The notes: generated by a model not told the origin, from the sequence alone. Numbered from the stretch's first letter, positions 1,086 through 18,118 are shown. The stretch: 64,000 bases of DNA from Thermoflexus hugenholtzii (GCF_018771565.1 NZ_CP076326.1:2733785-2797784); one strand, 5' to 3'. Numbers and translations are program-made.

Positions 1086-1128
1086 GGGCTGATTTCCCCT
1101 GAGAGGGGAGGTCAGCCCTTTTTGTTTT
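1086..1128 (+). terminator. Intrinsic terminator after the sigma gene
   Basis: Hairpin GGGCTGA-TTT-CCCCT-GAG-AGGGG-AGG-TCAGCCC (1086..1118), directly followed by TTTTTGTTTT. It sits between convergent genes. Confidence 0.7.
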
Positions 1129-1691
1129 CAGCCTCCCCTTCCCTCCCCATCCCTCTCCTGGAGCAGCGACCGCAGGCGGTCCAGGCCCTTCTGCAACCAG
1201 CCCTGGCCCTCCCCTCGGGTCAACCCCAGCCGCCGCTCGATCATCGGGATCGCGCTGGGGGCATGCCCTTCCAGCCCGAAATAGCGAACCACCACCGCGA
1301 AGGCCAGGGGCATCTCCTCCTTCAGGCGTTGCAGGGCATGCTGCAGCGCCTCCAGCTCCTCCCGTGCTTCCACCGTTTCATGGATCCCATCCCCGGACTC
1401 CTCCTCTTCCTCCCACAAGGGGCACTCGGCATGCCCTCTCAGGCGCCGCAGGATCGCCCGACGCAGAAACAGGTCCAGGTGGAGGTAAAGATAGGTGGTG
1501 AAGCGTGCCCGCTCGGGATCCCATCGCTCGACCGCCTCGCAAACGATCCGGAACCCTTCCTGCATCACATCCTCCGGATCCAGCCACGAGGGGAGGTCCA
1601 GGACGCGCAAGAGACGGGTGGCGGCCCGCTCCACGAGTTGCTGGATGCGATCGAAGTCCGCAAAGGCCTGCGCCATGCGGTCCCTGCTCAT
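1128..1691 (-). CDS. ECF-like sigma-70 family factor, divergent from the WXG100/Tad gene train
   Basis: Region 2-like 'DVMQEGFRIVCEAVERWDPERARFTTYLYLHLDLFLRRAI'. Region 4-like 'LAFAVVVRYFGLEGHAPSAIPMIERRLGLTRGEGQGWLQKGLDRLR'. Start set at the internal ATG (cat at 1689..1691, MSRDRMAQ...), because the upstream 68 codons of the ORF look non-coding. Confidence 0.7.
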   Translation of the reverse strand: MSRDRMAQAFADFDRIQQLVERAATRLLRVLDLPSWLDPEDVMQEGFRIVCEAVERWDPERARFTTYLYLHLDLFLRRAILRRLRGHAECPLWEEEEESGDGIHETVEAREELEALQHALQRLKEEMPLAFAVVVRYFGLEGHAPSAIPMIERRLGLTRGEGQGWLQKGLDRLRSLLQERDGEGRGG

Positions 1692-1825
1692 CCGGCGCTC
1701 CTCCGGGCGGGATGAAAACGGCCGCACGGAGGGGAGCCGGTCCGGGCGCAGGGCGCCTGCCGTCCATGCGGCCGGTTCCGTCATGATGATAAGCGGTGCC
1801 CCATTCGAACCGGAGATCGCGTTCA

Positions 1826-1847
1826 GAAAAATGGGAAAAATGGGAAC
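1826..1847 (+). promoter_or_regulatory. AT-rich tandem 9-mer (GAAAAATGG x2 plus partial) in the divergent promoter region
   Basis: GAAAAATGG at 1826..1834 and 1835..1843, then GAAC. This is the only AT-rich patch between the ECF-like sigma gene (start 1691) and the first WXG100-like gene (start 1928). A TATCAT -10-like hexamer lies at 1890..1895. Confidence 0.3.
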
Positions 1848-1927
1848 GGGCGTTGAGCGGGGCGGCAACGAGAGAGAGGGGCGACTGTCTATCATCTTAA
1901 TGAGACATCCTCGCGGAGGCGATCGGG

Positions 1928-2230
1928 ATGGGACGGATCTACCAGGTGGATTACGATCAGGCCTTCGCGCTCTGCGCGGAGATGGAGCAGGTCATGGGCG
2001 AGATGGAGGGCGAGACAACGACCATGGGCCGGTCCATCGAGCCGCTGGAACCCCGCTGGGTGCCGCATGGGGCGGCAGCGCGGGCTTACGGCGAAACCCT
2101 GATCCAGCACCTGCGGAAGTGCGTTCAAGAAAACCGCGCGGCGATCGCCGCGCTGCGCCAGGCCCTGAACAACCTGAAAGCCCTGGAGGAGGAGCAGGCG
2201 CGGCGCATGCGATCCCCGCGCGCATATTGA
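1928..2230 (+). CDS. WXG100-like (ESAT-6-like) small helical protein, non-canonical central W-x3-G
   Basis: 100 aa with helix-turn-helix style composition. Central 'EPRWVPHGAAARAY' occupies the position of the WXG turn. It is followed 18 nt later by a canonical WXG100 partner. Confidence 0.55.
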   Translation: MGRIYQVDYDQAFALCAEMEQVMGEMEGETTTMGRSIEPLEPRWVPHGAAARAYGETLIQHLRKCVQENRAAIAALRQALNNLKALEEEQARRMRSPRAY

Positions 2231-2248
2231 GGGCACAAAGGAGGAGCC

Positions 2249-2575
2249 ATGGCGTACGACGAGCCGGCGTCGCGAAAGTGGACGCATTGGCCGAAAGCGA
2301 TCCAGGCCTACCGACGGGGGCTGGAGGAGGAAACCCCTCAGCGTATCGGGATGGAGGTGAGGAGGGCGCTCCTGGAGGAGCTGCCGGGCCTCTGGGCGGG
2401 AGAGGCCGCTCGGGGTTACCTGGAGGAGGCCCAGCGCCGGCTGGAGATCTTCCAGCGCTGGCTGGTGGAAGGCTTGCAGCTCTCCAGGGCGATTGCGGCC
2501 GGGGAAGAACGGATCGCCCAGGCCGTCGCCGAGGTGGAGCAGATGCTGCGATCGCTGCCGGATCCAACGTTGTGA
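2249..2575 (+). CDS. WXG100 family (type VII secretion target-like) protein
   Basis: 108 aa with the central motif 'LPGLWAGEAARGYLEEAQ' (W-A-G followed by an aromatic or helical segment). The size and pairing are typical of Esx-type heterodimers. Confidence 0.65.
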   Translation: MAYDEPASRKWTHWPKAIQAYRRGLEEETPQRIGMEVRRALLEELPGLWAGEAARGYLEEAQRRLEIFQRWLVEGLQLSRAIAAGEERIAQAVAEVEQMLRSLPDPTL

Positions 2576-2585
2576 GGGAGAAGCG

Positions 2586-3704
2586 ATGGGCGCGCAGGAT
2601 CCTCGCGGGCTGCAGGTGGAGCCGGAGGCGGTTCGGGAGATCGCCCGGGCGTTGCGGCGGGGGGCCCGGGAATGGGAGACCCTGGCTCAGCGAGCCCAGG
2701 GGCACGGAAACGCGCTGGGGGAGATCGCCCGGGCGGTGCCCGGGGAACAGTTCCGCGCCTTCTGGGTCCGGCAGTATCCCCGCTGGCAACGGGGCGCGGA
2801 GTATCTGATGCGCATGGCCGAGGTCCTGGAGCGGGCCATGGACCGGCTGGAGGAGGCCTTCCGGATGGCAGCCCGGATGGTGCAGGAGGCCCCTACGGCG
2901 GAGCGCGGGGCGTTGCCCTTCGTGCCCCTCGCCCTGAGCCCGGAGGGGTATCCCCGCGCCGTGGACGCCACCGGACGTCCCCTTCAAAGCCAGTTCGAGG
3001 CCCGCGTCTCCACGGCCCAGCTGCTCCAGCTGGGGGTTTCGGAGGCTTCCCTCCGGTCCTTGCTGGGGCTCCGGGAAGGACAACCGTTGCCGGAGTCCAT
3101 TCCGTGGAGCGCGGCCTGCGGTCCGGTGGGGCTGAGCATGGCCGCCAGCGCGGTGCTGGGCCGCTCCGTCCCGGTGGAGGCGGCGATTGCCAGCACGCTG
3201 CGCACCGCAGATGCTTCGCTTCAGCAATCGATTCGCGAGAACATCCAAGCCCGTCCGGGCAAGGGGAGCCTCGGCTTCTACACCGGGACCCATGACTTGA
3301 TCCGAGCGGCGGGCGAACTGGGGTTAAAGGGAGAGCAAGCTTGGGTGCCGAATGGAGAACAGGATTCGGAGGGGCTGTGGCAGAGCTTGCAGGAGCGCCT
3401 CGGCCGCGGGGAGGCCCTGATGGCCCTGGTGCGCATTCAAGAGAAACGCGGCCTGCAGGTTGGGGATGGTCTTTTGACTCCCCATCAGGCTTCAGACTCC
3501 GTCTCCCACTGGGTGACGGTGCAGAAGCTGGAGGAGGGGCCCGAGGGGCGCTATGTGGTGATCGGCAACCCCTATTTCAACCGCTCCGAGCGCTACCGCT
3601 GGGAGGATTTCCTCGAAGCCGTTGATGATCAGGCCCGGAAAGAGCGATGGTGGATGCTGGCGTTTTCGAAGGGAGAAGGCCAGTCCGGAGGGGGGATGCC
3701 ATGA
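2586..3704 (+). CDS. Two-domain protein: N-terminal WXG/LXG-like helical domain plus C-terminal C39-like (papain-fold) cysteine peptidase domain; candidate T7SS effector
   Basis: Start ATG 2586 follows GGGAGAAG. The N-terminus 'LQVEPEAVREIARALRRGAREWETLAQRA...' forms a helical hairpin. The C-terminus has 'WSAACGPVGLSMAASAVLG' (catalytic Cys context of Peptidase_C39-like proteins) and 'SHWVTVQKL...GRYVVIGNPY' (His and Asn/Asp context). Confidence 0.55.
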   Translation: MGAQDPRGLQVEPEAVREIARALRRGAREWETLAQRAQGHGNALGEIARAVPGEQFRAFWVRQYPRWQRGAEYLMRMAEVLERAMDRLEEAFRMAARMVQEAPTAERGALPFVPLALSPEGYPRAVDATGRPLQSQFEARVSTAQLLQLGVSEASLRSLLGLREGQPLPESIPWSAACGPVGLSMAASAVLGRSVPVEAAIASTLRTADASLQQSIRENIQARPGKGSLGFYTGTHDLIRAAGELGLKGEQAWVPNGEQDSEGLWQSLQERLGRGEALMALVRIQEKRGLQVGDGLLTPHQASDSVSHWVTVQKLEEGPEGRYVVIGNPYFNRSERYRWEDFLEAVDDQARKERWWMLAFSKGEGQSGGGMP

Positions 3705-4855
3705 GCGGGCGGTGGAAGGCGGTGGGACTGGTGGTGGGGTTGCTGCTGGGGGCGTGCGGCGCCCCGGCGGAGCCATCCCCCGGGCCGCGTCCGGGGGCCA
3801 CGGCTCCGGCGAAGGAGGCGGCGGCCTCTCCCTCGCCAGCTCCGACGCGGACCCGTCTCCCCACGCTGACTCCGGCGCCTCTGGCGTTCCGTCCCCAGCC
3901 GCTTCCGGAGGGTTTTCGGACGGGGGATCACTGGCTGGCGGTGCGGGTGGTGCGGGAGTTTGCGAAGGAGCGGACGGCGTATACGGCGGACACGTATGCG
4001 ATCTGGTTCACGGACGGGCAGCGGTGGCTGGGGCCGGTGCCGGAGGTGGGTCTTTACATCACGCGGCTGGAGAGGGCGTTTTGGCGGCGGGCGGGGGATG
4101 GGTGGGAGTTGTGCGCGCGGGTGGCGGTGCAGCCCACGTTGGGGGCGCAGGAGGCGCCGATGGTGTTCTGCGCCCCGGCGCCTTCGGGGGTGGGTCCGAA
4201 GGAGGCTTCTTCGGCCTCTCCGGAGGCGTCGCCGTGCCCGGACGGCCGCTCCCTCTGCGTGAAGCGATCGGACGGTTCCGTCCGATCGCTTCCGTTGCCC
4301 GCGGAGCTGTTCCGGCCGGATCCCTCGCAGAAGATAGAGGAGATCTCCCCACCGGAAGTTGGGACGGAAGGGGTTCGGATGGAGATCCGATACAGGACCA
4401 CGGAGAGAGGAGGGATCGTTGAGACAAGGGTATGGAAACCGGTCTGTGGGGCTCGAGGTCGCTGGGTGGTTTTGGACTTCGCGGTGTATCGGCATCCGTG
4501 GGGCGGCGCCGCGGGCGGTGGGCTCGAACATAGCGAGCTCTACATCGCCGATCTGTCCGCTGAAACGGTGCGTCCGCTGGGCGCCATCGAAGCGCGCGGG
4601 CAGCTCGTAGACGCTTTCCGAGCGGAGGGTCGGATCCCCTTCGTCCGAGGGGACGAACGATTCTCCATGCCGAATCACCTCCTCCCCTATGTGGAGGGAG
4701 GCTGCTCCTCCGATGGATCGTTCCTGCTGTTTGGCACAGAGGCGGATGGGTCCGGAATGCTCGGTTTCCCGCTGTCCTGGGTGGCGCGGCTGGAGGATCG
4801 CGTGATCTATCCCTTGCCGGGGGACCAGGCCCGGTGGGTGGAGAAGAGCCCATGA
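3701..4855 (+). CDS. Lipoprotein, unknown function; translationally coupled to the upstream gene
   Basis: ATG 3701 overlaps the upstream stop (ATGA). The signal and lipobox read 'MSGRWKAVGLVVGLLLGAC'. A Pro/Ala/Thr-rich linker is followed by a globular region with no motif I recognise. Confidence 0.7.
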   Translation: MSGRWKAVGLVVGLLLGACGAPAEPSPGPRPGATAPAKEAAASPSPAPTRTRLPTLTPAPLAFRPQPLPEGFRTGDHWLAVRVVREFAKERTAYTADTYAIWFTDGQRWLGPVPEVGLYITRLERAFWRRAGDGWELCARVAVQPTLGAQEAPMVFCAPAPSGVGPKEASSASPEASPCPDGRSLCVKRSDGSVRSLPLPAELFRPDPSQKIEEISPPEVGTEGVRMEIRYRTTERGGIVETRVWKPVCGARGRWVVLDFAVYRHPWGGAAGGGLEHSELYIADLSAETVRPLGAIEARGQLVDAFRAEGRIPFVRGDERFSMPNHLLPYVEGGCSSDGSFLLFGTEADGSGMLGFPLSWVARLEDRVIYPLPGDQARWVEKSP

Positions 4856-4971
4856 GGGCGGAACGAGGAAAGCCGGCACGCGATGAGCAGGAGGGCGGAG
4901 ACGGTGAGGAGGGGTGCGATCGGCCTGGCCGGGTGCGATGAAACCGGACCGGACGAGGAGGCAAGCGGAGG

Positions 4972-6288
4972 ATGTTCCCGGAGATCCGGGCGGAGACCAT
5001 CGAGTCGCTTCTCCCTACGGAGGCCGCGCTGCCTCTGGAAGCGCTTCGGGCGGCCCTTTCCCGGAACACCGGAGGACGTCCGGCAGGGGTGGCGGATGCC
5101 CTGCGGGCGGCCCAGGAGGTGTTGGGGCCGGCGGCGGCTCCGGCGACGCTGGCCCGGGCTGCCCTGGCCGTTCTGGACTGGGAGGAGCTGTTTCCCATCC
5201 TGAGCGACCCCGCGGTGGAGGATTTCGCCCTTCACCACCGGCGCTATCTGTGGGTCTTCCGGGGTGGGCGCTGGGCGCGCTGGGGGGAGGTGCAGGATCC
5301 GGATCGCCTGATGGGAGGGATCCGCCGGCTGTGTGAGCGCTACGGGATCCGCACGCCGGGGGATGTGAAGCCGGCCGCCGAGGGATCTTTTTCCATCGAT
5401 CTCCCGGATCCCATCGGTTTCCTGACCGTGCGGATCTCCTGGTCGGCCCCGCCGCTGGTCCCCTCGGATTGTTTGACGGTGCGCCTGGCCCGTCCCGGCC
5501 GAGCGCCCGGGCTATCCGATCTGGTGGCGGGAGGGGTGCTCACCCCGGAGGCGGCTCGGTATCTGCTGGGGGTGCTCCGGCGGCGGGGAACCCTGATCAT
5601 CGCCGGGCCGACCGGTTGCGGCAAGACCACCCTGGCCCGGGCGCTGTTGCGGGAGGTGGGCCGGGAGTTCCGCCTGGTGATCATCGAGGACTCCTACGAG
5701 CTGATGGTGTTCTGGGACGGCCGCCCGGATAGCGACCCGGGGAACGTGGTGCACAAGCTCACCCGACAGAAGCTGCCGGGCGAGGAGATCGTCCCCTTCT
5801 CGGCCTTCGATCTGATCGTGATGGCCCTGCGGGAGCGCCCCGACGGCATCGTGGTGGGAGAGGCCCGGGGTCCAGAAGCCTTCGAGATCCTGCGGGCGGC
5901 CAACACCGGCCACGGCCCCCAGGTCACCACGATGCACACCGATAGCGTCCAGCGGGTGTGGTCGCGTTACCTCCAGATGGCCCAGGCCCACCCGGAGGCC
6001 CGGGATCTTCCGGTCCGAACCATCGCCATGATGTTTGCCGAGGCGGTGGCGGCGGTGGTGGTGATGGGTTACCGGGAGGGGCCGGACGGAGGGCAGCGCT
6101 TCGTGGAGGCCATCGCGGAGGTCCTGCCCTTTGTGGAGGGCGATTCCGATCAGCCGGCCCTGCGGACGGTCTTTCAGCGGACGGGGGAGGGGTTGCGACC
6201 GGCTTCCCGGCCGGCTCGGCCGCGCTTTACGGCGGAGGAGCTGGGGCTGACGGATCTGCCCTGGGGGGCCGGCGCAATGGTCTGGTGA
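4972..6288 (+). CDS. cpaF: Tad pilus secretion ATPase (CpaF/TadA, type II/IV secretion ATPase family)
   Basis: Walker A 'IIAGPTGCGKTTLARALL', Walker B-like 'RLVIIEDSYEL', 'IVVGEARGPEAFEILRAANTGH' and the His box 'TTMHTDS'. Confidence 0.85.
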   Translation: MFPEIRAETIESLLPTEAALPLEALRAALSRNTGGRPAGVADALRAAQEVLGPAAAPATLARAALAVLDWEELFPILSDPAVEDFALHHRRYLWVFRGGRWARWGEVQDPDRLMGGIRRLCERYGIRTPGDVKPAAEGSFSIDLPDPIGFLTVRISWSAPPLVPSDCLTVRLARPGRAPGLSDLVAGGVLTPEAARYLLGVLRRRGTLIIAGPTGCGKTTLARALLREVGREFRLVIIEDSYELMVFWDGRPDSDPGNVVHKLTRQKLPGEEIVPFSAFDLIVMALRERPDGIVVGEARGPEAFEILRAANTGHGPQVTTMHTDSVQRVWSRYLQMAQAHPEARDLPVRTIAMMFAEAVAAVVVMGYREGPDGGQRFVEAIAEVLPFVEGDSDQPALRTVFQRTGEGLRPASRPARPRFTAEELGLTDLPWGAGAMVW

Positions 6289-6305
6289 GAGATCGGGGGG
6301 ATCCG

Positions 6306-7268
6306 ATGGATCTGCGGGACGCGGTGGCATTGCTGGCGGGTGCCATTGTGGGGGCGGGGGCGCTGGCCGCCCTGGCCCGCCCGACCGAGGAGGCTCTGAT
6401 CCGGTCCGGCTGGCGGGAACTGGTGCGCCGCCCCTGGCTGGAGGGCATGCTGCGGGCCGCAGGGATCGATCTGCCGCCCACGTTGTTTTTGCAGTTTGCG
6501 GTCCTCTGGGCGGCGGCGGGTGGGCTGATCGGCCTGATGGCGGGGCTGGGTCCCGTGGCCGCCGGGATGCTGGCCTTCTTCGGGGCCAGTTTCTATTTCG
6601 TCCGTGCCCAGGAGCAGGCCGCGACCCGCCGCTTGCTCCTGGCGGGGGAGCTCCTCGTCTTCTTGCGGATGCTGGCAGCCGGGCTGCGGGCCGGCGCGCC
6701 GCGCTCGGAGGCCATCGCGCGGGCCAAGCAAGTATGCGGACCGGTGGCCCGTCGGGCCCTTACGGACCTGGAGGAGCGGCTGGCTCGGGCCGGCGATGCG
6801 CCGGAGGCGCGAACCCGGGCGGTTCAGGAGTGGGCAGCGGCCCTCGCCCATCCGGTGGCCACCTCGGCCGCCCAGGTGTTGCAGGTGTTCATGAGCGGCG
6901 GCGCGGGGGTCTCGGAGATCGTTCAGGTGATCGCGGAGGAGATGGACCGGGTGCGCCGCATCCTGGAGGTCGCCCGGGCCCGGGGGCGCGGGATGCAACG
7001 CCGGATCTATCTCATCATCGTGATGTCCGCGGCGGGCCTGCTCTTGTTGATCGCCTCCGATCCGATGTTCCGCGATCTCCTCCTCGGGGATCCGATCAGC
7101 CCCGTCCTGATCGTGGGCGGATGGTGGGGGGCTTTGATGGTTTCCCAGTGGATAATGGATCGATATTTTTCGATGGAAGAGACGGTGGGCATCGCCCGGG
7201 GAGGCGCCGGCCTGATCCCCACGGACCGCTATGGGAACCCCATCCTGCCCGGCGGGGAAGCCCGATGA
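6306..7268 (+). CDS. tadB: Tad pilus inner-membrane platform protein (TadB-like, T2SSF family)
   Basis: Polytopic membrane protein placed directly after cpaF. Start ATG 6306. N- and C-terminal hydrophobic blocks flank a cytoplasmic helical domain. Confidence 0.7.
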   Translation: MDLRDAVALLAGAIVGAGALAALARPTEEALIRSGWRELVRRPWLEGMLRAAGIDLPPTLFLQFAVLWAAAGGLIGLMAGLGPVAAGMLAFFGASFYFVRAQEQAATRRLLLAGELLVFLRMLAAGLRAGAPRSEAIARAKQVCGPVARRALTDLEERLARAGDAPEARTRAVQEWAAALAHPVATSAAQVLQVFMSGGAGVSEIVQVIAEEMDRVRRILEVARARGRGMQRRIYLIIVMSAAGLLLLIASDPMFRDLLLGDPISPVLIVGGWWGALMVSQWIMDRYFSMEETVGIARGGAGLIPTDRYGNPILPGGEAR

Positions 7269-8167
7269 GCCTGGCGGATCTGGCGGCGCTCCTTGCCGGC
7301 GGGCTGGTCTTGGGAGGGCTGTGGGCGTCCCTCCTGCGGTCGGCGGATCCGATTCGGGCCCGGCCGGAGAGCCCGGATCCGCTGGATCGGGGGACTGCGC
7401 TGCCGGCCTGGCTGACGCCGCTTTATCCCCTCCTGTGGCCGCTGCTGCCTGTCTGGGAGGGCATCGCGCTTCGCCGGGGAGCTCCCTTGGCCGAGCGCAT
7501 CGCCCGCTCTGGATATACGCCTTACGCCACGGTCTCGGCGGTGTGGGCCGCGCGGCTGTGGGGGATGGCCCTGGGCCTTCTGGCGATGATCGGAGGAAGT
7601 CTGCTCACCGGCCTGCTCCTGGGCACCCTGATCCCGGGGATCCTGGGAGGGCTGGCGGCAGGGCTTTACGGGGTGCTGTCTCCGGATCGACGGATCGCGG
7701 CGGCCATCGCCGCCCGGAAGCGGCGGTTTCGGTCGAACATGCTCCTGGTGCTGGCGGCGGCCCGGGGCTTCCTGCGCGGAGGGAGAGCCTGGGATGATGC
7801 CCTCTCCCGGGCAGCGGTGGGAGACGGAGTGTTCGCCAACTGGGCCCGCTTCCTGGTCGCCCGTTACACGGCGCGCGGGGAGGCCGGCCTTCAGGAAGCC
7901 CTCTTCCATGCCCCGGATCCGCGGGATCCTTACCTGATCCGCTTCATGGATGGGGTGCGCGCAGCCATCTCCGGAGGAGCCGGTTTTGAGGTCATCCTCT
8001 CCTCCCTCATCCAGGATCTGGGCTCCGAGATGGAGCAGGAGGTCTCCGAGCGGGTGACGGCCGTCGAGCCCTACGTAATGGCCGCGGGGATCCTGGCCAT
8101 TATGGGCTACATGATCGTCCTGCTCTATCACGTCTTCGCCGGCGGCCAGGACTTGCTCGGCTTCTAA
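7265..8167 (+). CDS. tadC: Tad pilus inner-membrane platform protein (TadC-like, T2SSF family)
   Basis: ATG 7265 overlaps the tadB stop (ATGA). It has the same architecture as TadB, and its position is canonical. Confidence 0.7.
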   Translation: MSLADLAALLAGGLVLGGLWASLLRSADPIRARPESPDPLDRGTALPAWLTPLYPLLWPLLPVWEGIALRRGAPLAERIARSGYTPYATVSAVWAARLWGMALGLLAMIGGSLLTGLLLGTLIPGILGGLAAGLYGVLSPDRRIAAAIAARKRRFRSNMLLVLAAARGFLRGGRAWDDALSRAAVGDGVFANWARFLVARYTARGEAGLQEALFHAPDPRDPYLIRFMDGVRAAISGGAGFEVILSSLIQDLGSEMEQEVSERVTAVEPYVMAAGILAIMGYMIVLLYHVFAGGQDLLGF

Positions 8168-8193
8168 ATCTTCGCGGTGAGCGGAGGTGATCC

Positions 8194-8385
8194 ATGCAGA
8201 CGTTGTGGGCGTTTCTGACGGAGGAGGAGGGACAGTCCCTGGTGGAGTTCGCCCTGCTGTTCCTCTTCATCGCCGTGGTGGCCGCCCTGGCCCTGCCGGG
8301 CGTCCGCCAGCGCATCCTCAACGCCTTCCGGATCGGCGGCCAGAAGATGGACGAGGCTACGGGAGCGGCGTCAGGAGGAGATTGA
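8194..8385 (+). CDS. flp: Flp/Fap family pilin
   Basis: 63 aa. 'LTEEEG|QSLVEFALLFLFIAVVAALAL' matches the Flp prepilin G/XXXXE[YF] processing motif followed by a hydrophobic helix. Confidence 0.85.
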   Translation: MQTLWAFLTEEEGQSLVEFALLFLFIAVVAALALPGVRQRILNAFRIGGQKMDEATGAASGGD

Positions 8386-8750
8386 TGGGGAGGGCGCGCC
8401 GGCGGCGGGATCAGCGGGGCCAGGGCCTGGTCTCCTTCGCCCTGGCTATGGTTCCTTTCTTCCTGTTGTTGCTTTACATGCTTTACGCGGGCGCCTACGC
8501 CCTGCGCTGGAGCGTCCGTTCCCGGCTGGCGGCGGAGGCCGCCTTCCGGACCTCGGCCTATCCGGGCGTGACCTCGGCGGAGATCGTCTCTGCCATCGAT
8601 CCGGCCCGCCGGGCCCTGGAGGCCCGCGTGGACGAGGTCCAGGATACCGGCGGGCGCTTCTACGGCGTCCCGATCCGCTGGCGGGTGTCCCTGCAGCTGC
8701 TCTTCCGCAAGTGGCGGTTCTGGGACGGGCCGCCGCAGGACTGGTGGTGA
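8385..8750 (+). CDS. TadE-like pseudopilin
   Basis: The start overlaps the flp stop by 1 nt. The N-terminus 'RRRRDQRGQGLVSFALAMVPFFLLLLYMLY' is the TadE-type charged segment followed by a hydrophobic one. Confidence 0.65.
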   Translation: MGRARRRRDQRGQGLVSFALAMVPFFLLLLYMLYAGAYALRWSVRSRLAAEAAFRTSAYPGVTSAEIVSAIDPARRALEARVDEVQDTGGRFYGVPIRWRVSLQLLFRKWRFWDGPPQDWW

Positions 8751-8763
8751 CGGGGGAGGACCT

Positions 8764-9162
8764 ATGCGCGGACGCCGCGGGGAGGCCCTGACCGAGCTGG
8801 CCCTGGCGCTGCCGGTGCTCGCCCTGATGTTCTGGGGGATCCTGGGCCTGATGGAGCGGGGGCGGACGGCGAATCTCGCGGTCTGGGCCGCCTACGCTTG
8901 CGCGGCCCAGGCCTCCCAGACCCCCGACGGGGCCCAGGGGCTGCGCCAGGGGGAGGCCGCCGCCCGGGCGGTGCTGGGCCGGCGACTGGTGGACGTCACC
9001 GTCCAGCACGACGGGGTCTGGGGCGGCCGGGTGGTGTGCACCGTGATCGCCCGCCCGACGCTCTTTGTTCCCCTCCTTTCGTTTCTGGGACAGGACGTCC
9101 GGGTCCGCCAGGAGACCTATATCGAACACTGGAAATCCGGCTGGCAGGAGATCCCGCCATGA
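8764..9162 (+). CDS. TadE-like pseudopilin
   Basis: 'MRGRRGEALTELALALPVLALMFWGILGL' is a typical TadE/TadF N-terminus. Confidence 0.65.
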   Translation: MRGRRGEALTELALALPVLALMFWGILGLMERGRTANLAVWAAYACAAQASQTPDGAQGLRQGEAAARAVLGRRLVDVTVQHDGVWGGRVVCTVIARPTLFVPLLSFLGQDVRVRQETYIEHWKSGWQEIPP

Positions 9163-9548
9163 GCCTGTTGCCGTTCCTGGCCCTGTATCTGGCGGTGGTG
9201 TTCGCGCCGATGACGGCCGCGATCCGGGACCTGATGGTGCACCAGATCCGCATCGAGCGGACCCGGGCGGTCCTCAACCTGGCCGTCCGGGATGGGGCTC
9301 AGATGAGCGCCCCGGACGCGGACGGGCATCTGGTGGGGGAGCCCGCCGCCATGGCGGCGCGGGTAGCGGAGATCTGGGCGGACGCCCGGATCCCCGGCGC
9401 GGTCCTGGAGGAGGTCTCCTGCATGTCTGTCCCTCCGGCCTGTGCCGCGCGCGCTCGGGTGACCACCCGGGGGTTCCTGGGGACCCTCTCCACCCGAGTG
9501 GCGATCGAGGGGACGGTGCTGGAGGGGATCCTTCAGGAAGGCCAGTGA
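9159..9548 (+). CDS. Small membrane-anchored protein, possible third pseudopilin (TadF/G-like)
   Basis: ATGA overlap with the upstream gene. N-terminal hydrophobic helix 'MSLLPFLALYLAVVFAPMTAAI'. No further motif. Confidence 0.45.
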   Translation: MSLLPFLALYLAVVFAPMTAAIRDLMVHQIRIERTRAVLNLAVRDGAQMSAPDADGHLVGEPAAMAARVAEIWADARIPGAVLEEVSCMSVPPACAARARVTTRGFLGTLSTRVAIEGTVLEGILQEGQ

Positions 9549-9584
9549 TCGCAAGATGGATTCAAAGCCGGCGAGGAGGTCGCA

Positions 9585-10601
9585 ATGTATTGGATCCGGT
9601 GGTTCTTCAAGGAGCTGTGGTGGTATCTCACGTATGAGCACTACGGCCGCCGCCGCCTGCGCCCCGCCACCTGGGGCCTGCTGTTCACCCTCCCCCTCCT
9701 GGCCGCCTTCTACCTGCTCGCCCTCTGGCTGGGCCAGCAGGCCGCCCTCCCCGGCGAGCGGCCCGCCCCCACCCTGCCGCCCCTGACGAAAACGGCGATC
9801 TTCGCCGCCGTCACCGCCACCGCCCAGGCCCCCACCCGCACCCCCGCCCCCCGGTGCCCCGAGGACCCCCGGCTGTGGCAGCTCGTTCCTCTCCAGGGGA
9901 CGCTGCGGGATCCGAAGACGGGGCAGCCCATCCAGCTGCCCAAGCCGCCCCAGCGCATCGAGCCCGCCTGCGTCTACGAGGGGCTGGCCCGGGACCTGGC
10001 CCACACCCTGGTCCCCAACCCCGACGTCCCCGCGCCCTCGGTGGAGGACAAGGTGCTCTCCGTCCCCTGGTTCTGGGCCCCTGGAATGGAGGCGCCTCAG
10101 ATCCAGGCGAAACCTGTAAAGCGAGAGAATTTCGATGTCTACTATGATGCTAAGGGGAAGCGGATTGACCACCTTTATCTGCCCTACACGGCCGTCGCCA
10201 CCGGGGATCCCGACTTCCCGATCCTGGTCTATGTCTATTCGGATGGTCCCCTGGCCTGGGGGGTGGCGCGCCAAGAGGGCCGGGAGGATATCTGGGCCCG
10301 TTACCGGATCGAAGGCGGAGAGGTTGCCCGCGGCATCCTGGCAGTAGCTTACGATCTGAAGATTCGACGCTGGGTTCGGATTGCCTACAAGCGCCCCTTT
10401 CCGCCTCGGGATATCCACGCAGCGCCGGCGGGCTCGGCGGAGGACCTGGCGAAACTGTTCGGATTGCCCCTCTGGCGGCGCTCGGAACTGCTGGCCCGCT
10501 TCGGCCTGGAGGAGATCTTCCCGGAGACGATCAACCCCTCCACCGTGAAACCCATCGGCACCCTCATCATCCGCCCGGAAGGGTCAGAGGTCAGGAGGTG
10601 A
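9585..10601 (+). CDS. Membrane-anchored hypothetical protein inside the Tad locus
   Basis: One N-terminal TM segment ('WGLLFTLPLLAAFYLLALWLG'), then a Pro/Thr/Ala linker and a globular extracytoplasmic domain. Codon usage is consistent with the neighbouring genes. Confidence 0.55.
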   Translation: MYWIRWFFKELWWYLTYEHYGRRRLRPATWGLLFTLPLLAAFYLLALWLGQQAALPGERPAPTLPPLTKTAIFAAVTATAQAPTRTPAPRCPEDPRLWQLVPLQGTLRDPKTGQPIQLPKPPQRIEPACVYEGLARDLAHTLVPNPDVPAPSVEDKVLSVPWFWAPGMEAPQIQAKPVKRENFDVYYDAKGKRIDHLYLPYTAVATGDPDFPILVYVYSDGPLAWGVARQEGREDIWARYRIEGGEVARGILAVAYDLKIRRWVRIAYKRPFPPRDIHAAPAGSAEDLAKLFGLPLWRRSELLARFGLEEIFPETINPSTVKPIGTLIIRPEGSEVRR

Positions 10602-10604
10602 AAG

Positions 10605-11960
10605 ATGGGGATGCGGTGGATTGCAATGCTTTCGGCGCTCCTGTTGCTGTTCGGGTGGGCAACCAGCCGACCCAGCCCCGTCGCTGCCCAGGGCCAGGAT
10701 CAGTGTGATGACAGCTGGAACCCCGCTTGCTTGGACCTTGAGATCCGTCAGACGCAGGACTTGGGGGCTTCGGGGCGGGAGGCGCGGCGGTGCACCGGGA
10801 CCACCCGCATCGGGGTGATCCTTCCCGGCTCCGGGCCCAATTCCTGCGTCGAGGCCCAGGCAGAGATCGACTGCGCCGGCCACGTCCAGATCACCCACCG
10901 CTTCGGCGAAGGCCCCGACTTCTGCCCCACCGCCAACGTCGCCTGGAAAACCTACTGCCTGGAGAACCCCACCCTGGGCTCCGGCGTCGGGGACAGCGCC
11001 GGCGCCTGCGCCTGGCGGGACTACTACGGCCAGACCATCCGCCTGAAGGTCCAGGTCCCACCCCACCGCTTCCGGGTCACCCCCTACCCCGTCGGCTTCG
11101 TCGCCCGGGAGGACCCCTGGGGGGTCTTCCGCCCCACCGCCCGCCTGGTCTGGGAGGAGCCCCCCTGGCCCCAATCCGCCGACTCCGGCTGGCGCCTGTG
11201 GACCTGGGGCGGAAGCCGCGGCCCCGGCGCCGCCCCCTTCCCCTGCGGGATGCGCGAGGCGGAACTGCTGGCCCACCAGGTCCCCGCCGGCACCGCCTGC
11301 CTGCGCCTCCAGCTCTGGACCGCCCCCGGCGGCTTCCAGCAGGACGCCAGCGGGATGATGGAGGCCGTCCTCCTGCCCGGTCTCCTGCAGTTCCCCGCCG
11401 CCGGCCTGGACGCCGAGGTGGCCCCCGGACGGGAGGTGGCGATCAACTTCCCCTACGCCTCCCATCCGGCCACCGGCCAGGTGAGCGAGGTGGCCTTCGG
11501 GGATCGGACGCTGCCCGCCTTCAACGGCTACTTCCAGCGGGGATGGCCCGTGCGCCTGCGGGTCGACAAAAAGACCGTGCGGGACGTCACCGGAACCCGC
11601 GCGATCTGCGAGCCCCTGCCCCGGGCGTGGTGGGGGGAGATGGACTGCTGGACCGATCCCCCCGTCGTGGCCCCGGGCCGAAGGCGGACGGAGACCTACG
11701 TGGCCCGCAAGGAGTGGGTCCTGGAGGAGGCGCGGGATGGGGTCCTGGATCTGACCCTGGAGCCCTTCGGTCGGCCCTATGCGCATCTGCATCCAGATCG
11801 GGGGCAGGTGCAGGGGCCGGAGGGGAAGGCGTGGTGGATCCCCCTGGTGTGGCGGGGGAAGATCCCCTGGCTGTATCTGCCCCTGGCGGTGCGGGAGGGG
11901 CAGGGGGTGGTGTGCTCCGACCCCACCTGCGGCGGCTACGTGAACTGGAACACACCCTAA
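10605..11960 (+). CDS. Secreted Cys-rich hypothetical protein inside the Tad locus
   Basis: Signal peptide 'MRWIAMLSALLLLFGWATSRPSPVAAQ'. At least 14 Cys residues are spread through the mature part. It starts 3 nt after the upstream stop. Confidence 0.55.
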   Translation: MGMRWIAMLSALLLLFGWATSRPSPVAAQGQDQCDDSWNPACLDLEIRQTQDLGASGREARRCTGTTRIGVILPGSGPNSCVEAQAEIDCAGHVQITHRFGEGPDFCPTANVAWKTYCLENPTLGSGVGDSAGACAWRDYYGQTIRLKVQVPPHRFRVTPYPVGFVAREDPWGVFRPTARLVWEEPPWPQSADSGWRLWTWGGSRGPGAAPFPCGMREAELLAHQVPAGTACLRLQLWTAPGGFQQDASGMMEAVLLPGLLQFPAAGLDAEVAPGREVAINFPYASHPATGQVSEVAFGDRTLPAFNGYFQRGWPVRLRVDKKTVRDVTGTRAICEPLPRAWWGEMDCWTDPPVVAPGRRRTETYVARKEWVLEEARDGVLDLTLEPFGRPYAHLHPDRGQVQGPEGKAWWIPLVWRGKIPWLYLPLAVREGQGVVCSDPTCGGYVNWNTP

Positions 11961-11976
11961 GCGGAGCGGTCTCTGG

Positions 11977-12423
11977 ATGAGCGAGCTCACCGAGGGCATG
12001 CGCTTGGCGTTCCTTACGGTGATGGTCCCTGGGATGCTCTGGGTGGATCGGCGGTGGGATCGGCCGGAGGGGCGGATCCCGGCACCGATCGCCCTCACCG
12101 TGTTGGGAGCCGGGTTGGGCTTGGCCCTGATCACACGGGACTGGACGGGCTTGATCCTGTGGCCCGCTTTCTTCTTGGGCTGGCGGGCCGGTGGGGTCGG
12201 CGCAGGGGATGCCAAGGTCTGGATGGGGCTGGCGGCGGCAGGCGGGATCGGGCCTTCGGCGGTGGGTCTGGTGGCCCTGGTGGCGCTGGCCCGCCTGCGG
12301 GCCTGGCGGATGGGCTGGGGATGGCGGGCGGGGCTCGCCCCGCGCGTGCGCGTCCCCATGTCGGCCCCAACCGCCGGCTGGGCGCTGGCGGCCGCCCTGA
12401 CCCGGATCGCTTTCGGAGGATAA
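11977..12423 (+). CDS. cpaA: Prepilin peptidase, A24 family (CpaA/TadV-like)
   Basis: 148 aa polytopic protein with 'WRAGGVGAGDAKVWMGLAAAGG' (the GxGD[AV]K aspartyl-protease motif). A first Asp region lies in 'MLWVDRRWD'. Confidence 0.75.
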   Translation: MSELTEGMRLAFLTVMVPGMLWVDRRWDRPEGRIPAPIALTVLGAGLGLALITRDWTGLILWPAFFLGWRAGGVGAGDAKVWMGLAAAGGIGPSAVGLVALVALARLRAWRMGWGWRAGLAPRVRVPMSAPTAGWALAAALTRIAFGG

Positions 12424-12435
12424 AGGCGACAGGGC

Positions 12436-13989
12436 ATGGAGCGACGGGACGAGATGTTCAGAGATGTCACGCGGAGCAAGAGAATCCTCCTGTTATTCGT
12501 CCTCATTGGGGGGATCACCCGATTGCTCCCGGTGGTTCCTTCCTCCGTCCGGGCCCAGTCGGGCTGGGTCGACGTGTTCTTCGACGACTTCAACGGGAAC
12601 ACCGGGTGGAGCATCTACCAGTTCGGAGGCGGGGATGAGATCGCCTTTTCATCAGACGGCGGGGCAACGGTGATCCGGGCCGACAACGCCTCCGCGGACG
12701 GCCCGGGGCGGGACGATTACTCCGGCTTCGCTGCCCGCTCCGTCTCCATCCCCGCCGCCTACTCCGACTATGCCGTCGAGGTCCGCCTGCGCTTCCCCGA
12801 GCGCACGCCATTCGGAATGCTGCTCTCCGTGGGGACCGGCACGCCGGCCGGCTGCTCCGGCGGCGCTTACTGGTCCTTCGTGGAGGACATCCTGCGGATC
12901 CACGCCAACAGCAGCGGCGCCCAGGTGGCGGTCTTCGAGGGGGACGTTTACGCTCCGCCGTCGCCGGAGGCCTTCTTCACGGTCCGGCTGGAGGTCTACG
13001 GCTCCTCCGGGATATGGATGCTCCTGATGGATGGAACGCCGCGGGCCTCGGGGGCGATCCCGCCGGGGGCGGGGCGGCCCGGGGGGATCCACATCGGCAA
13101 CTACCGTTATGGGTGTGCCTTCTGGGGGAACTGGACCAGCCTGCACGTGGACTACGTGCGGATCCAGGGCTATGCGGCGCCCACCCCGACCGCGACATGG
13201 ACGCCCACGCCGACGCCGACCTTCACGCCGTCGCCCACGCCCACGGATACGCCTACTCCTACGCCTACAAACACGCCGACTCCCACGCCCACCAACACGC
13301 CCACGCCGACGCCTACAACGACGAACACGCCTACTCCCACGCCTACGGATACGCCGACCCCCACGCCGACGAACACGCCGACGCCTGCGGCAACGCCGAC
13401 CTCCACCTTCGCGCCGCCTCCGCCTCCGCCGCCGCCCACGGAGACGCCAACGTCCACGCCGACGGCCACGAGGACGTCCGCTCCGACGCGGACCCGCACG
13501 CCGACGCCGACCCCGGTGCCCACGGAGACGCCCCTGCCTTCGCCCACGCCGACGGCGACGGGGACGCCGACGCCGACGCCGTCCCCTCCGCCCGCGCCGG
13601 CGCCGACGCCTTCGGCGATCTGGGGGATCGTCTTCCTGGACCGGGATGGGGACGGCCGGCTGGACCCCGACGAGCCCGGGATCCCGGGGGCTGTGGTGCA
13701 GGTGGAGGAGCAGATCCGGATCACCGGGCCCGACGGGCGCTTCCTGCTGCCGCCCGGCTCAAAGGCAGCGCTTTTGCGCCTTCCGGTTGCGGGGCGGCTG
13801 ACGGTGGCGGACGGGGTGGTGTTCGGGGTGCAGCCCCTGCGGCGGCCCCGGTGGCTGCTGGGGCTGGGGGTGGGGATGCTGCTGCTGGCGCTTTCCTGGG
13901 CCTTCAATCCCTGGGCGCGGGAGCTGCGGCGGCTTTCGGAAGACCTGAAGGGGCTGGCGAAGTTCTTTCTAAAGGCATTCCACGAATGA
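12436..13989 (+). CDS. Cell-surface protein: concanavalin/LamG-like domain, long Pro-Thr linker, SdrD-B/CarboxypepD_reg-like domain, C-terminal TM anchor
   Basis: N-terminal signal or TM segment. '[11 protein letters not shown]...[11 protein letters not shown]' resembles lectin/glucanase-fold domains. About 145 aa of (T/S)P repeats follow. '[29 protein letters not shown]' is the SdrD-B-like part, and '[18 protein letters not shown]' is the anchor. Confidence 0.6.
13180..13613 (+). repeat. Imperfect tandem ACNCCN (Thr-Pro) coding repeat
   Basis: Reiterated units such as ACGCCGACGCCTACAAACACGCCGACTCCCACGCCC encode TPTPTPT[ND]TPTPTPT... The antisense frame gives the spurious 'GVGVGV' ORF at 13170..14351. 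Confidence 0.9.
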
Positions 13990-14023
13990 TTCGTGTGGCA
14001 CCTTCGATTCGGGGAGGCGCGCG

Positions 14024-14563
14024 ATGACCGAGGGGGATCTGGCTCTGGGGATGCTGCTAATTTTCGGCTTTGCCCTGCTGGGGTTGGCCACCACGTGGGG
14101 CTGGGCCCGGAACGCCCGGGAGACGCGGCGGATCCGGGAGGCGCTGGAGGCCTGGGCGCTGCAGGAGCTGGCCCGCCGGCGGGAGCAGGAGGCCCGGGAG
14201 ATCCGGCCGCCGGAGGACCTGCGGGGGTATCTGGCGGATCTGCTGGCCCGGGCCGGGATGGAGGGGGTGCGGGTGCAGGAGGTGACGCCGCTTCCGGGAG
14301 GTCCGGGCTTCCGGGTGATTGCGGACGGGAAGGCCTGGATCCTTTCGCCACATCCGCCGGGGCGGGGGGAGGGGGTCGTCCTGGATGCGCTCACCACGGG
14401 GGACCGATGGGCGGCGGAGCGGCTGCGGCGGGCCCGGATGGCGGCCGAGCCCGGCCTGGCCGTCCCGCCCACGGAGCGCTGGTGGCTGGCGCCGGAGATC
14501 CGGACCTTCGCGCCCCGGCGCAACGGACGGCGGTTTTCCATCCCCTTCACGCTGCCGCGGTAG
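14024..14563 (+). CDS. Small membrane protein of unknown function, immediately upstream of the EssC-like ATPase
   Basis: N-terminal TM segment 'LALGMLLIFGFALLGLATTWGW', then a charged coiled segment and a ~100 aa C-terminal domain. Confidence 0.5.
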   Translation: MTEGDLALGMLLIFGFALLGLATTWGWARNARETRRIREALEAWALQELARRREQEAREIRPPEDLRGYLADLLARAGMEGVRVQEVTPLPGGPGFRVIADGKAWILSPHPPGRGEGVVLDALTTGDRWAAERLRRARMAAEPGLAVPPTERWWLAPEIRTFAPRRNGRRFSIPFTLPR

Positions 14564-14651
14564 ACCTCCCGGAGATGAGGGAAGCGGGGGAGCGAGGGAG
14601 CCAGGAGCGTTCGCCTCCGCACCTTTCCAGGATCTTGAAGGAGAAGGCTTT

Positions 14652-17600: not shown

Positions 17601-18068
17601 CGTCGCCCGGCGTTGCGGATGGCCCCCGAGCTGGTGGCGGCCCTGGATCCCTTGCGGCGTTCCTTGTCCCGCGTGGCGGGCGCCGGGATCGCCCTTCGGA
17701 CCTGGGATCCGGAGGGGGACCTGGAGGAGATCCCGGCGTTGAAAAGCCTCCCGGATCCCCAGAGTTTTCTGGAGGAGCTGGGGCGTCTGGAAGCGGAGGG
17801 GATCCCCTGGCTGGCGGTCCTCCCGGACACCGACACCTTCCGGATGCGCCTGGGTTATACCGGGGAGATCCCGCCTCCCCTTCGCCGGCCCCGCTGGGGC
17901 GCTTACCTCCTGGTCGGGCGAGAGCGCCTGGAGCTGCGGGCCTGGACGTTGAGCCGCTCCCCGGAGGAACGTCCCTCCCAACCGTCCATCGCAGCGGATC
18001 ATCCCGGGCTGGCCTGGCTGAGCGCCCCCGGGGAGGGCGAATGGATATTGCTCCCATTGGGCGAATAG
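14652..18068 (+). CDS. FtsK/SpoIIIE-family ATPase, EssC/EccC-like: two N-terminal TM helices and two P-loop domains
   Basis: ATG 14652 follows GAAGGAGAAGG. TM segments are 'APWALMALVYGLVGPLTGM' and 'WVSLLFLPLALGSSFLAAEI'. Domain 1 has 'AMVIGATGSGKSEALRTLALAL', 'LLFIDFKGGGAF', 'HLVVMADEFAEM' and 'HLVLATQR'. Domain 2 has 'LVGQAGTGKTAALMAAAAAA' and 'TVLVLDGVERI', which looks degenerate. Confidence 0.8.
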   Translation: MGWVERDGKEMLDPEAPVQRIWPGLRRLPATPMGLPEPPELPSVPRAPERPPFYLHAPWALMALVYGLVGPLTGMRSSWVSLLFLPLALGSSFLAAEIQHRWSLSRYRRELQETLARSERRLRCFLEGVEAWRQAMEAWERTLFPPWEDLEARLRSGSDLWFRRPEDPDFLHVRLGLTTEPLRPPQGRWSSLDPEEVPPPLRGAAHAVRSIAEMRREVPLGLDLRRPAVLRVFPGQEGILRRILLEVALAHSPSEVGLFAALADPEWSFLRWLPHTGEEREGWADGPAAVRERIFEEFYRRRGRGEGILPRILLLLDADALGDPRLGELLREGPVRGIHPVLILSPGEPVPGEVRTEAVLFPGGGIWISHRDGGPQEGRDPGPFLTAGHAEALARRLASLRPMGMRPSPRPVPAPALWGIQARETAPEDIQRLRALRGKAPSLAVPLGTEESGEPFVLDLHDRAHGPHAMVIGATGSGKSEALRTLALALALHFPPERVQLLFIDFKGGGAFAPLEGLPHCVGLLSNLDAREAARALRTLEGELDRRQRVLAARGADHADQIGLPHLVVMADEFAEMLEAIPDGMARMIRLARLGRSLGMHLVLATQRLGSAVPADLRANLRVRIALRCETPDESAAVIGRPDAAYLVGSGWAFVQVGQNEVFRRIRVAYVSGRSLGAREILWMDPVDPARRLRREVIGGEARRDLDVLVEALARMDPPAPRRTPPPLPADPGFPEGEGEHGIGIGVADYPEIGEIRWIFLTPSAPDWRLVGQAGTGKTAALMAAAAAAARAGRRVAVVDGDGGWKECPWVLRVLPEDREGLRRLLRTLSTDPSPTVLVLDGVERIPEAAMGELEPGLEGLTGRPELWIWTASRRELPLRPLRGRPAVRVFLALDPPEWEALMGRRPIPEGPFQGWLADGEGGREIRLRRAMGPPPPPAPPLARSWLGRWSELPLPTRTEEGWWWPLGWRDLDLEPISVLLSPRRPALRMAPELVAALDPLRRSLSRVAGAGIALRTWDPEGDLEEIPALKSLPDPQSFLEELGRLEAEGIPWLAVLPDTDTFRMRLGYTGEIPPPLRRPRWGAYLLVGRERLELRAWTLSRSPEERPSQPSIAADHPGLAWLSAPGEGEWILLPLGE

Positions 18069-18118
18069 CAAGCGTTTGGAGTCTCCCCGCCACGGAATTC
18101 GAGACTGCGGAGGAAACG

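Follow-up and report, generated by a model that had tools for sequence, protein, structure and literature searches.

LXG toxins of type VII secretion systems (T7SS) are encoded with genes for small helical partner proteins on their 5' side and an immunity gene on their 3' side, and in the pair TslA/TilA a lipoprotein provides immunity to a T7SS toxin that acts extracellularly (PMC10730906). Zhang et al. 2012 reported toxins with WXG or LXG tags in Chloroflexi, and gave the Tox-PLC39 domain only for export by type II (T2SS), type VI (T6SS) and Photorhabdus virulence cassette (PVC) systems (PMC3482391). A gene pair of comparable layout is present in a 64,000-nucleotide stretch of the genome of Thermoflexus hugenholtzii, a hot-spring bacterium of the Chloroflexota, class Thermoflexia (GCF_018771565.1 NZ_CP076326.1:2733785-2797784), hereafter the window, where an open reading frame (ORF) for a putative effector of 372 amino acids (aa) occupies positions 2586-3704 of the plus strand and is directly followed by a lipoprotein gene. 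We read the pair as a cell-wall hydrolase destined for export and a lipoprotein that is its cognate inhibitor, and give this reading a probability of roughly 55%, the export route, substrate and inhibition being the inferred parts. This reading builds on the fold and catalytic residues of the enzyme, its lack of a Sec signal, a domain swap among its relatives, the co-variation of its partner, gene linkage and evolutionary rates. With its relatives the pair makes up a small effector family specific to its lineage, in which one export domain is joined either to a peptidase or to a GH108 muramidase, each with its own lipoprotein.

The effector gene begins with an ATG at 2586, preceded by a GGGAG ribosome-binding site and separated by exactly 10 nucleotides (nt) from the stop codon of the preceding gene (2575), and ends with a TGA at 3702-3704. 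Its orthologues align from Met1, which supports this start. Re-reading of the sequence confirmed the coordinates, the 10-nt gap, the quoted motifs, the ATGA overlap with the next gene and the LLGAC lipobox given for the pair in an earlier note on this DNA. The effector contains no hydrophobic segment (maximum 19-residue hydropathy 1.23), indicating that it has neither a Sec signal nor a membrane anchor. Residues 175-188, SAACGPVGLSMAAS, contain Cys178 (codon tgc, 3117-3119), and the protein also carries the motifs SHWVTV and YVVIGNPY, with His308 (cac, 3507-3509) and Asn328 (aac, 3567-3569). The AlphaFold2 model of the effector, built on eight homologues, has a predicted template modelling score (pTM) of 0.65 and a disordered linker at residues 102-115.

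The C-terminal domain, modelled with a predicted local distance difference test score (pLDDT) of 80-93, is predicted to adopt the fold of a papain-like cysteine peptidase with its triad in the canonical secondary-structure positions: Cys178 just before a helix (179-191), His308 in a strand (305-318) and Asn328 at the end of another (321-328). All three residues are invariant across the effector family. The top Foldseek matches of the domain in the PDB are all papain-fold proteins, including the phytochelatin-synthase-like Alr0975 (E 5.5e-5), staphopains, the papain-like toxin 9l5u, the C39 domain of PCAT1, and CtaG. Against viral models (BFVD) the significant matches are likewise all papain-type, including AvrRpt2-like papain proteases (E 9.5e-7) and the mycobacteriophage endolysin Lysin A (E 2.5e-5), whose C39-like, staphopain-like cysteine protease module (N5) was described by Payne and Hatfull (PMC3314691). 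Judged from the model, the domain is nearest to the group of C39-like, BtrH-N, phytochelatin-synthase, staphopain and phage Lysin-A peptidases. The C39-like papain fold proposed in the earlier note is therefore recovered in a structural model, with the cysteine at a helix start and the histidine and asparagine on adjacent strands. An identity as NlpC/P60 or CHAP was rejected, as no such structure is among the top 50 fold matches.

A relative that is 36% identical (P0013) exceeds the gathering score of Pfam Peptidase_C39_2, with 25.9 against 24 bits, and two close relatives match this family at E 0.085 or weaker, the match to DUF3335 reaching E 0.0079; Peptidase_C39 proper (PF03412) matches neither the effector nor the family members scanned. 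A HMMER scan of 1.84 billion representatives returned 84 proteins, only about 10 of which are full-length relatives. The remainder match in the His/Asn half only, with the strict signature HW..NP[FY]xNxxExY, and an alignment of roughly 100 domain copies of remote relatives retains it almost throughout. When 18 of the remote relatives of the domain were scanned with Pfam, nothing useful emerged. The family of this His/Asn half (P0020-P0090) has no Pfam match, and the half is often doubled in proteins of 450-1400 aa.

The match to 9l5u (E 9.1e-4) raises the alternative of a protease toxin aimed at a cytoplasmic protein of a competitor, in which the lipoprotein would be unrelated to immunity. The structure is of the type of Cpe1, a T6SS toxin that cleaves GyrB and ParE (PMC12136450), and polymorphic toxins, those with a WXG tag among them, commonly contain papain-like domains (PMC3482391). 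When a broadened profile of the domain was compared with PDB sequences nothing was significant, the best match being CtaG (E 0.2) and 9l5u scoring weakly (E 0.91). Such a toxin is improbable here: the partner conserved beside the effector is a lipoprotein located outside the cytoplasm, relatives exchange the peptidase for a muramidase that carries a peptidoglycan-binding domain, and no candidate for a cytoplasmic immunity protein adjoins the effector gene.

The N-terminal domain is modelled as a helical hairpin (helices 13-48 and 56-101, pLDDT 58-75), which Foldseek aligns with Staphylococcus aureus EsxA (2vrz) at a template modelling (TM) score of 0.73 and a root-mean-square deviation (rmsd) of 2.4 Å over 91 columns. 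EsxA (3zbh) is also the best PDB match of a profile of 11 N-domains, with E 0.0012 and residues 4-98 aligned on 4-98, and again of the full-length family profile (E 0.022). The most conserved stretch of the domain, h85-xxx-E89-xx-F92-xxx-A96, in which E89, F92 and A96 are invariant among 11 diverse N-domains, satisfies the C-terminal pattern HxxxD/ExxhxxxH of WXG100 proteins (PMC3935865). A word-indexed search with the N-domain profile yielded two fragments only. A WXG100/LXG-like hairpin had been recognised in the first ~100 aa from sequence alone. The hairpin and its WXG100-like character in size and fold are upheld, EsxA being its best solved-structure match by sequence profile and the match of this domain by fold; the LXG character is not, as Pfam LXG gave no match up to E 10 and the domain is ~100 aa long, against ~200 aa in LXG.

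Two genes for small helical proteins, 'a' and 'b', precede the effector gene. Their description as a WXG100 pair holds at the motif for protein 'b', in which a literal W-x-G is present and W49 and G51 are invariant in 7 orthologues, and fails at the motif for protein 'a', in which the conserved hairpin reads W-V-P-H-G and the scores against Pfam WXG100 (E 0.006) and TIGR03930 (E 1.5e-4) are both sub-threshold. Protein 'a' also has a conserved C-terminal LKALEEEQARRMRS, and its profile aligns with EsxB end to end at E ~0.4; protein 'b' has no Pfam match, and its profile finds no WXG100 protein among PDB sequences. A third small helical protein is encoded between the two WXG-like genes in sister loci. 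Its best PDB match is EsxH (E 0.0037), followed by EsxB, and hhalign pairs it with the effector N-domain at a probability of 75% (E 2.4e-5), whereas the same comparison of the N-domain with proteins 'a' and 'b' is not significant. By these sequence comparisons it is the protein of the locus most clearly related to EsxH/EsxB and to the N-domain.

A modular effector family is indicated by relatives of this N-domain. A scan for the effector with one genome per species found 8 loci, confined to Thermoflexus and related metagenome-assembled genomes (MAGs) of Chloroflexota. WXG100-like genes are present wherever the upstream flank is available in the same slot (6 distinct loci), and paralogues in a second slot lack them. 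In two proteins (P0018 and P0019) the same N-domain is followed by Glyco_hydro_108 (E 7e-27 and 3.5e-29) and PG_binding_3. One locus (L008) carries both enzyme types in tandem, in the order three small helical genes, C39-type effector, lipoprotein 1, GH108 effector and an unrelated lipoprotein 2. A metagenome scan added 11 further full-length GH108 effectors, directly followed in 11/11 by a member of the lipoprotein-2 family, which has a C-terminal TPR region. Some GH108 cassettes are located beside the EccC block described below; often, though, they lie far from secretion genes, among housekeeping genes and with the nearest 8 kb free of any secretion gene (L014, L027). Within the 64-kb window there is neither another effector nor a GH108 copy, and the third small helical protein is lacking as well, but one GH108 cassette is located elsewhere in the same 3.3-Mb genome.

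N-domains are 52% and 50% identical across the two enzyme types of the same lineage, against ~31% within one enzyme type across lineages. They therefore group by genome and not by enzyme type, indicating that the tag tracks the genome while the enzyme domain is swapped. A genome has between 1 and 3 effector copies, and decayed ones are also found. A constant trafficking domain, alternative enzyme domains and a private lipoprotein that co-varies with them, features of polymorphic toxin/immunity cassettes, are found in this family, and the swap of the N-domain onto a muramidase with its own different lipoprotein strengthens the effector/immunity layout put forward earlier.

The partner gene overlaps the effector stop codon through the sequence ATGA (3701-3704). 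Its product begins with a signal peptide and the lipobox LLGAC (MSGRWKAVGLVVGLLLGAC), in which Cys19 is invariant in 9 homologues, followed by a tether rich in Pro, Ala, Ser and Thr. As previously reported it has no recognisable domain: there is no Pfam match, and the sole NCBIfam match, to the signal and tether region, is non-significant (E 0.064). A homologue of this lipoprotein-1 family directly follows the C39-type effector in 8/9 distinct checkable loci, the window included, and the order of the pair is conserved, mostly with the same 4-nt overlap, in all checkable related Thermoflexus loci but one.

Evolutionary rates separate the pair from its neighbours. Identities to a close relative (L003) are 94% for TadA, 91% for TadB and 90% for TadC, falling to 73% for the effector and 55% for the lipoprotein; the corresponding ratios of non-synonymous to synonymous substitution (dN/dS), given as ranges spanning all comparisons, are 0.07-0.08, 0.10-0.11, 0.10-0.16, 0.20-0.27 and 0.25-0.32. 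Effector and lipoprotein are thus under purifying selection (dN/dS 0.20-0.32) and evolve 3-4 times faster than the Tad genes. The lipoprotein ranks among the fastest-evolving products of the cluster, and its amino-acid identity is the lowest in comparisons at every distance. Both genes are functional yet fast-evolving, and their conservation as a pair together with purifying selection is more than would be expected by chance.

The pair is followed by genes for a tight adherence (Tad) pilus, arranged from 4972 to 20400 in the order TadA, TadB, TadC, Flp, three TadE-like genes, two unknowns, a TadV-like gene, two unknowns, an EccC-like gene and a ParA/TadZ-like gene. The EccC-like gene, overlooked by the earlier note as was the Tad set itself, is embedded in this complete Tad set, 9.6 kb downstream in the same-strand cluster and between the TadV-like and ParA/TadZ-like genes. 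Its ATG at 14652 is preceded by a ribosome-binding site, and the product has two Walker A motifs and, towards its N terminus, a single strongly hydrophobic stretch in which two membrane segments can be made out by eye. It matches the EccCa model TIGR03924 over profile positions 5-672 of 673 (E 4.2e-91, 306.7 bits), below the equivalog cut-off, EssC at E 7.7e-81 (272.2 bits) and FtsK_SpoIIIE at E 1.3e-36. An assignment of the locus to the T7SSb type had been suggested and is not sustained, given that the ATPase scores higher against EccCa than against EssC and that neither EsaA, EssA and EssB nor a YukD-like protein was detected among the cluster proteins, the neighbouring unknowns having no significant Pfam or NCBIfam match. 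A conjugative element was rejected, as the TraB match (E 7e-10) is far weaker than that to EccCa (4e-91) and the cluster recurs together with the upstream sigma-70 gene in three other Thermoflexus assemblies, L004, L012 and L013.

The proposed linkage of effector homologues to WXG100 and EssC-type genes agrees with the 6 distinct loci that carry WXG100-like genes and with the occurrence of the EccC-like gene at the window and three further loci, in the same-strand cluster (L012), on the same contig (L009) or inverted nearby (L001). The interleaving of Tad and EccC genes repeats in the first two of these three loci. Four conserved proteins with no significant Pfam or NCBIfam match (338, 451, 517 and 179 aa; 9585-11960 and 12436-14563) always accompany the EccC-like gene. 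In L009 and L010 an additional effector cassette is inserted between the TadV-like gene and the gene for the 451-aa protein, and an effector also follows the 451-aa gene in L011, L018, L019 and L022, where the contig or the list of matches ends before the TadV-like gene.

The interleaving of Tad and type VII genes is the most intriguing loose end of the locus. It suggests the long shot that the EccC-like ATPase, the WXG100-like proteins and the Tad proteins form one composite envelope-spanning machine with WXG-tagged wall hydrolases as its substrates, where the hydrolases would open the wall for the pilus or a Tad pseudopilus would act as a piston pushing them through it. Such a machine, if real, would combine type VII with type IV-filament secretion in a way undescribed in any phylum.

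The neighbourhood also bears on a possible role in processing. A peptidase with C39-like affinities that adjoins genes for a Flp pilin and WXG100-like proteins could mature the pilin, the WXG100-like proteins or a bacteriocin-like peptide, as a C39-type leader peptidase or an analogue of mycosin. The cluster already encodes a TadV-like prepilin peptidase, which makes the role on pilin or bacteriocin leader peptides raised in the earlier note unlikely and led to rejection of the Flp leader-peptidase reading. The TadV-like protein itself has no Pfam or NCBIfam match, so this assignment is inferred from its motifs. Moreover, the effector is not fused to an ABC transporter, none of which was found among the cluster genes scanned, and does not match Peptidase_C39 proper; no double-glycine leader gene was noticed nearby by eye, with no dedicated search made; it is difficult to see why a processing enzyme would share its export domain with a muramidase; and the private lipoprotein would be left unexplained. 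A processing protease in any of these forms is accordingly quite improbable.

Upstream, a Sigma70_r2 gene directly precedes the WXG-like genes in L001, L003, L012 and L013 as well, divergently oriented except in L003, and the ECF-like (extracytoplasmic function) sigma factor is a candidate regulator of the cluster. The gene in the window probably starts near 1690, which would make its product, like its relatives, ~187 aa long, and the listed ORF start would be ~200 nt too far upstream. A scan for sigma-70 promoters found nothing and is uninformative for a host with an adjoining ECF-type sigma factor and a GC content of 69% in the window. No terminator-like site was found between genes on the plus strand from 1928 to 8600, the single site there being located within tadB. 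The features of the locus are listed in Table 1.

Table 1. Features of the effector locus in the window and additional proteins of related loci (L numbers).
Feature	Position	Strand	Evidence or remark
ECF-like sigma factor, divergent	1128-1895	-	Sigma70_r2 E 8.8e-11 (Sigma70_r2 only)
Small helical protein 'a' (100 aa), WXG100-like, probable export partner	1928-2230	+	sub-threshold WXG100 scores
Small helical protein 'b' (108 aa), true W-x-G, probable export partner	2249-2575	+	motif LWAGEAA
Effector N-domain (aa 1-105), WXG100-like helical hairpin, presumed export tag	2586-2900	+	AlphaFold2, Foldseek, profile against PDB
Effector C-domain (aa ~120-372), predicted papain-fold cysteine peptidase	2943-3704	+	AlphaFold2 model, fold matches, invariant Cys178/His308/Asn328
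Cognate lipoprotein (384 aa)	3701-4855	+	LLGAC lipobox, Cys19 tgc 3755-3757, PT-rich tether
TadA/CpaF ATPase	4972-6288	+	T2SSE E 1.5e-25
TadB	6312-7268	+	T2SSF
TadC	7265-8167	+	T2SSF
Flp-like pilin	8194-8385	+	read from sequence, EEG|QSLVEFALL
TadV-like prepilin peptidase (148 aa), polytopic	11977-12423	+	motifs WVDRRWD, GAGDAK, hydrophobic segments
EccC/EssC-like FtsK-SpoIIIE ATPase (1138 aa), presumed type VII translocase	14652-18068	+	TIGR03924
Third small helical protein (99 aa)	L001 9184-9483; L003 9343-9642; L005 3767-4066; L008 ~7420-7722		between two WXG-like genes
GH108 sister effector	L008 10340-12168; also L014-L023, L027		N-domain + GH108 + PG_binding_3

In the favoured reading, an exported wall hydrolase with its lipoprotein inhibitor, the effector would be made in the cytoplasm without a Sec signal, and its WXG100-like hairpin, probably packed against small helical proteins 'a' and 'b', would serve as the targeting signal. 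This signal would presumably be received by the EccC-like ATPase that the cluster encodes. Beyond the membrane the papain-fold domain, with Cys178 as nucleophile and His308 and Asn328, would most likely cut the peptide stems or cross-links of peptidoglycan, and the lipoprotein on the outer face of the membrane would bind and block the enzyme, shielding the wall of the producer. The target may be the wall of a competitor or that of the producer itself.

Several observations weigh against this reading. Peptidoglycan is assigned as the substrate of the peptidase by association only. The Pfam scan of the effector C-domain gave no match, Peptidase_C39_2 included, and an invariant Gln136, a candidate for the oxyanion hole, is located 18-42 residues ahead of the cysteine, compared with ~6 in C39. 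The lipoprotein, in which a beta-rich domain of unknown fold follows the tether, was modelled poorly (pLDDT 53), and nothing matched its predicted fold. One locus (L009) encodes an intact C39-type effector with no adjoining lipoprotein gene; the effector is followed by a decayed second copy of the N-domain at 1575-1919 (E 1.3e-8), and the 1.1-kb gap contains no such gene. This arrangement is awkward for an obligatory immunity protein. On the export side, no other T7SSa or T7SSb core gene is recognisable in the cluster by Pfam or NCBIfam, the turn of the N-domain hairpin reads A-V-P-G-E-Q-F with no W-x-G (A50 and P52 being its only invariant residues and G53 and F56 kept in most members), and the effector reaches 15.2 bits (E 0.027) against a cut-off of 27.3 for Pfam WXG100 (PF06013), the best score among 8 family members, E 0.0039, being also sub-threshold. 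Lastly, all Thermoflexus clusters examined carry the effector and lipoprotein genes in one fixed slot, which fits a housekeeping role as well as a weapon.

These sub-threshold WXG100 scores would agree with an enzyme that is not exported at all, such as a cytoplasmic papain-fold acyl-transferase or ligase like BtrH or CtaG, in which the helices would form a dimerisation domain with only a generic hairpin likeness. CtaG (BtrH-N) is the best PDB sequence match of the C-domain, at E 0.2 only, and is also among the fold matches. This option is very improbable, as relatives join this N-domain to a muramidase and a peptidoglycan-binding domain, an enzyme for which the cytoplasm offers no substrate, both enzyme types are paired with lipoproteins, the genes are linked to EccC-like and WXG100-like genes, and there are no biosynthetic genes nearby.

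The fixed slot favours a dedicated wall-remodelling enzyme, which would be exported to cut the producer's own peptidoglycan locally and let the Tad pilus, the type VII apparatus or both span the wall, with the lipoprotein positioning or restraining it. The effector gene is located with the Tad genes, with no terminator-like site between them, and the same slot, or a second one by the EccC block, is used in all Thermoflexus clusters seen. The muramidase sister would allow the pair of enzymes to cut both glycan and peptide, as the ICEBs1 protein CwlT does, and FlgJ offers an analogue at the flagellar rod. In staphylococci the papain-type CHAP hydrolase EssH is needed for assembly of the T7SSb across the wall (PMC13059805), providing a type VII analogue, and the passage of T7SS substrates through the wall has been described as an open question (PMC13492133). 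Opposed to wall remodelling are the GH108 and lipoprotein cassettes in housekeeping neighbourhoods at least 8 kb from secretion or pilus genes, the copy number of 1 to 3 per genome with decayed copies, the private lipoprotein family of each enzyme type, and the evolution of effector and lipoprotein 3-4 times faster than that of the machinery genes; EssH, moreover, has a Sec signal and not a WXG-type tag. Wall remodelling is unlikely on this balance, while being the main alternative.

To our knowledge, type VII-style secretion is almost unstudied beyond Actinomycetota and Bacillota. If the reading as exported wall hydrolase and inhibitor is true, Chloroflexota would gain a defined family of effectors that can be recognised by their export tag, and its peptidase and muramidase would be the first type VII effectors known to us for which direct degradation of peptidoglycan is predicted, each being matched by a lipoprotein as protector. 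The analysis also exposes unannotated families, namely a widespread papain-type domain (HW..NPFxNxxExY) and two lipoprotein families, and the interleaving of type VII and Tad genes bears on how substrates and filaments cross the thick wall of single-membrane bacteria.

Compared with WXG/LXG toxins such as TelC-TipC, TslA-TilA and EsaD, the effectors share an N-terminal helical export domain joined to an interchangeable C-terminal enzyme, helical partners on the 5' side and a protector on the 3' side, linkage to an FtsK/SpoIIIE gene, fast evolution and variable copy number. The likeness to TslA-TilA extends to an externally exposed lipoprotein as protector, a role established for TilA and presumed here. 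They differ in their ~100-aa N-domain, which has neither a WXG motif nor an LXG match, in their phylum, Chloroflexota, in an EccC-like ATPase that is located within a Tad cluster and is the sole T7SSa or T7SSb core component recognised there, and in their C39-like peptidase and GH108 muramidase domains, both with unannotated lipoprotein families. Staphylococcus aureus EssH (PMC13059805) is likewise a papain-superfamily enzyme associated with type VII secretion and acting on the wall, and offers the housekeeping model; it combines a CHAP domain with a Sec signal and has no paired inhibitor, whereas the effector here combines a C39-like domain with a WXG-type tag and a private lipoprotein.

Among peptidases, the effector shares with Peptidase_C39_2, DUF3335, the C39 domain of PCAT1 and the N5 module of Lysin A the fold and the cysteine at a helix start, and with C39-like peptidases a histidine and a polar residue ~20 positions apart on neighbouring strands ('HWVvv ... 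viNNP'). Lysin A shows a C39-like domain put to peptidoglycan degradation (PMC3314691). Unlike C39-like peptidases, the effector has Asn in place of the Asp of 'DP' and a conserved Gln far upstream of the cysteine with a variable insert, and unlike C39 leader peptidases it is a stand-alone protein not fused to an ABC transporter, double-glycine substrates having been looked for by eye only. Cpe1-Cpi1 (9l5u, PMC12136450) resembles the present pair in its papain fold, recognised by the structural match, and in an adjoining partner gene. Cpe1 differs in being a T6SS toxin on a PAAR-like carrier that acts on cytoplasmic GyrB and ParE and is countered by cytoplasmic immunity, whereas the partner here is a lipoprotein. 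The system is not new in kind; it is a variant, restricted to one lineage, of the effector/immunity cassettes of type VII style, and differs from described members in a tag without WXG or LXG, in its wall-hydrolase domains, in its unannotated lipoprotein protectors and in an ATPase located within a Tad cluster.

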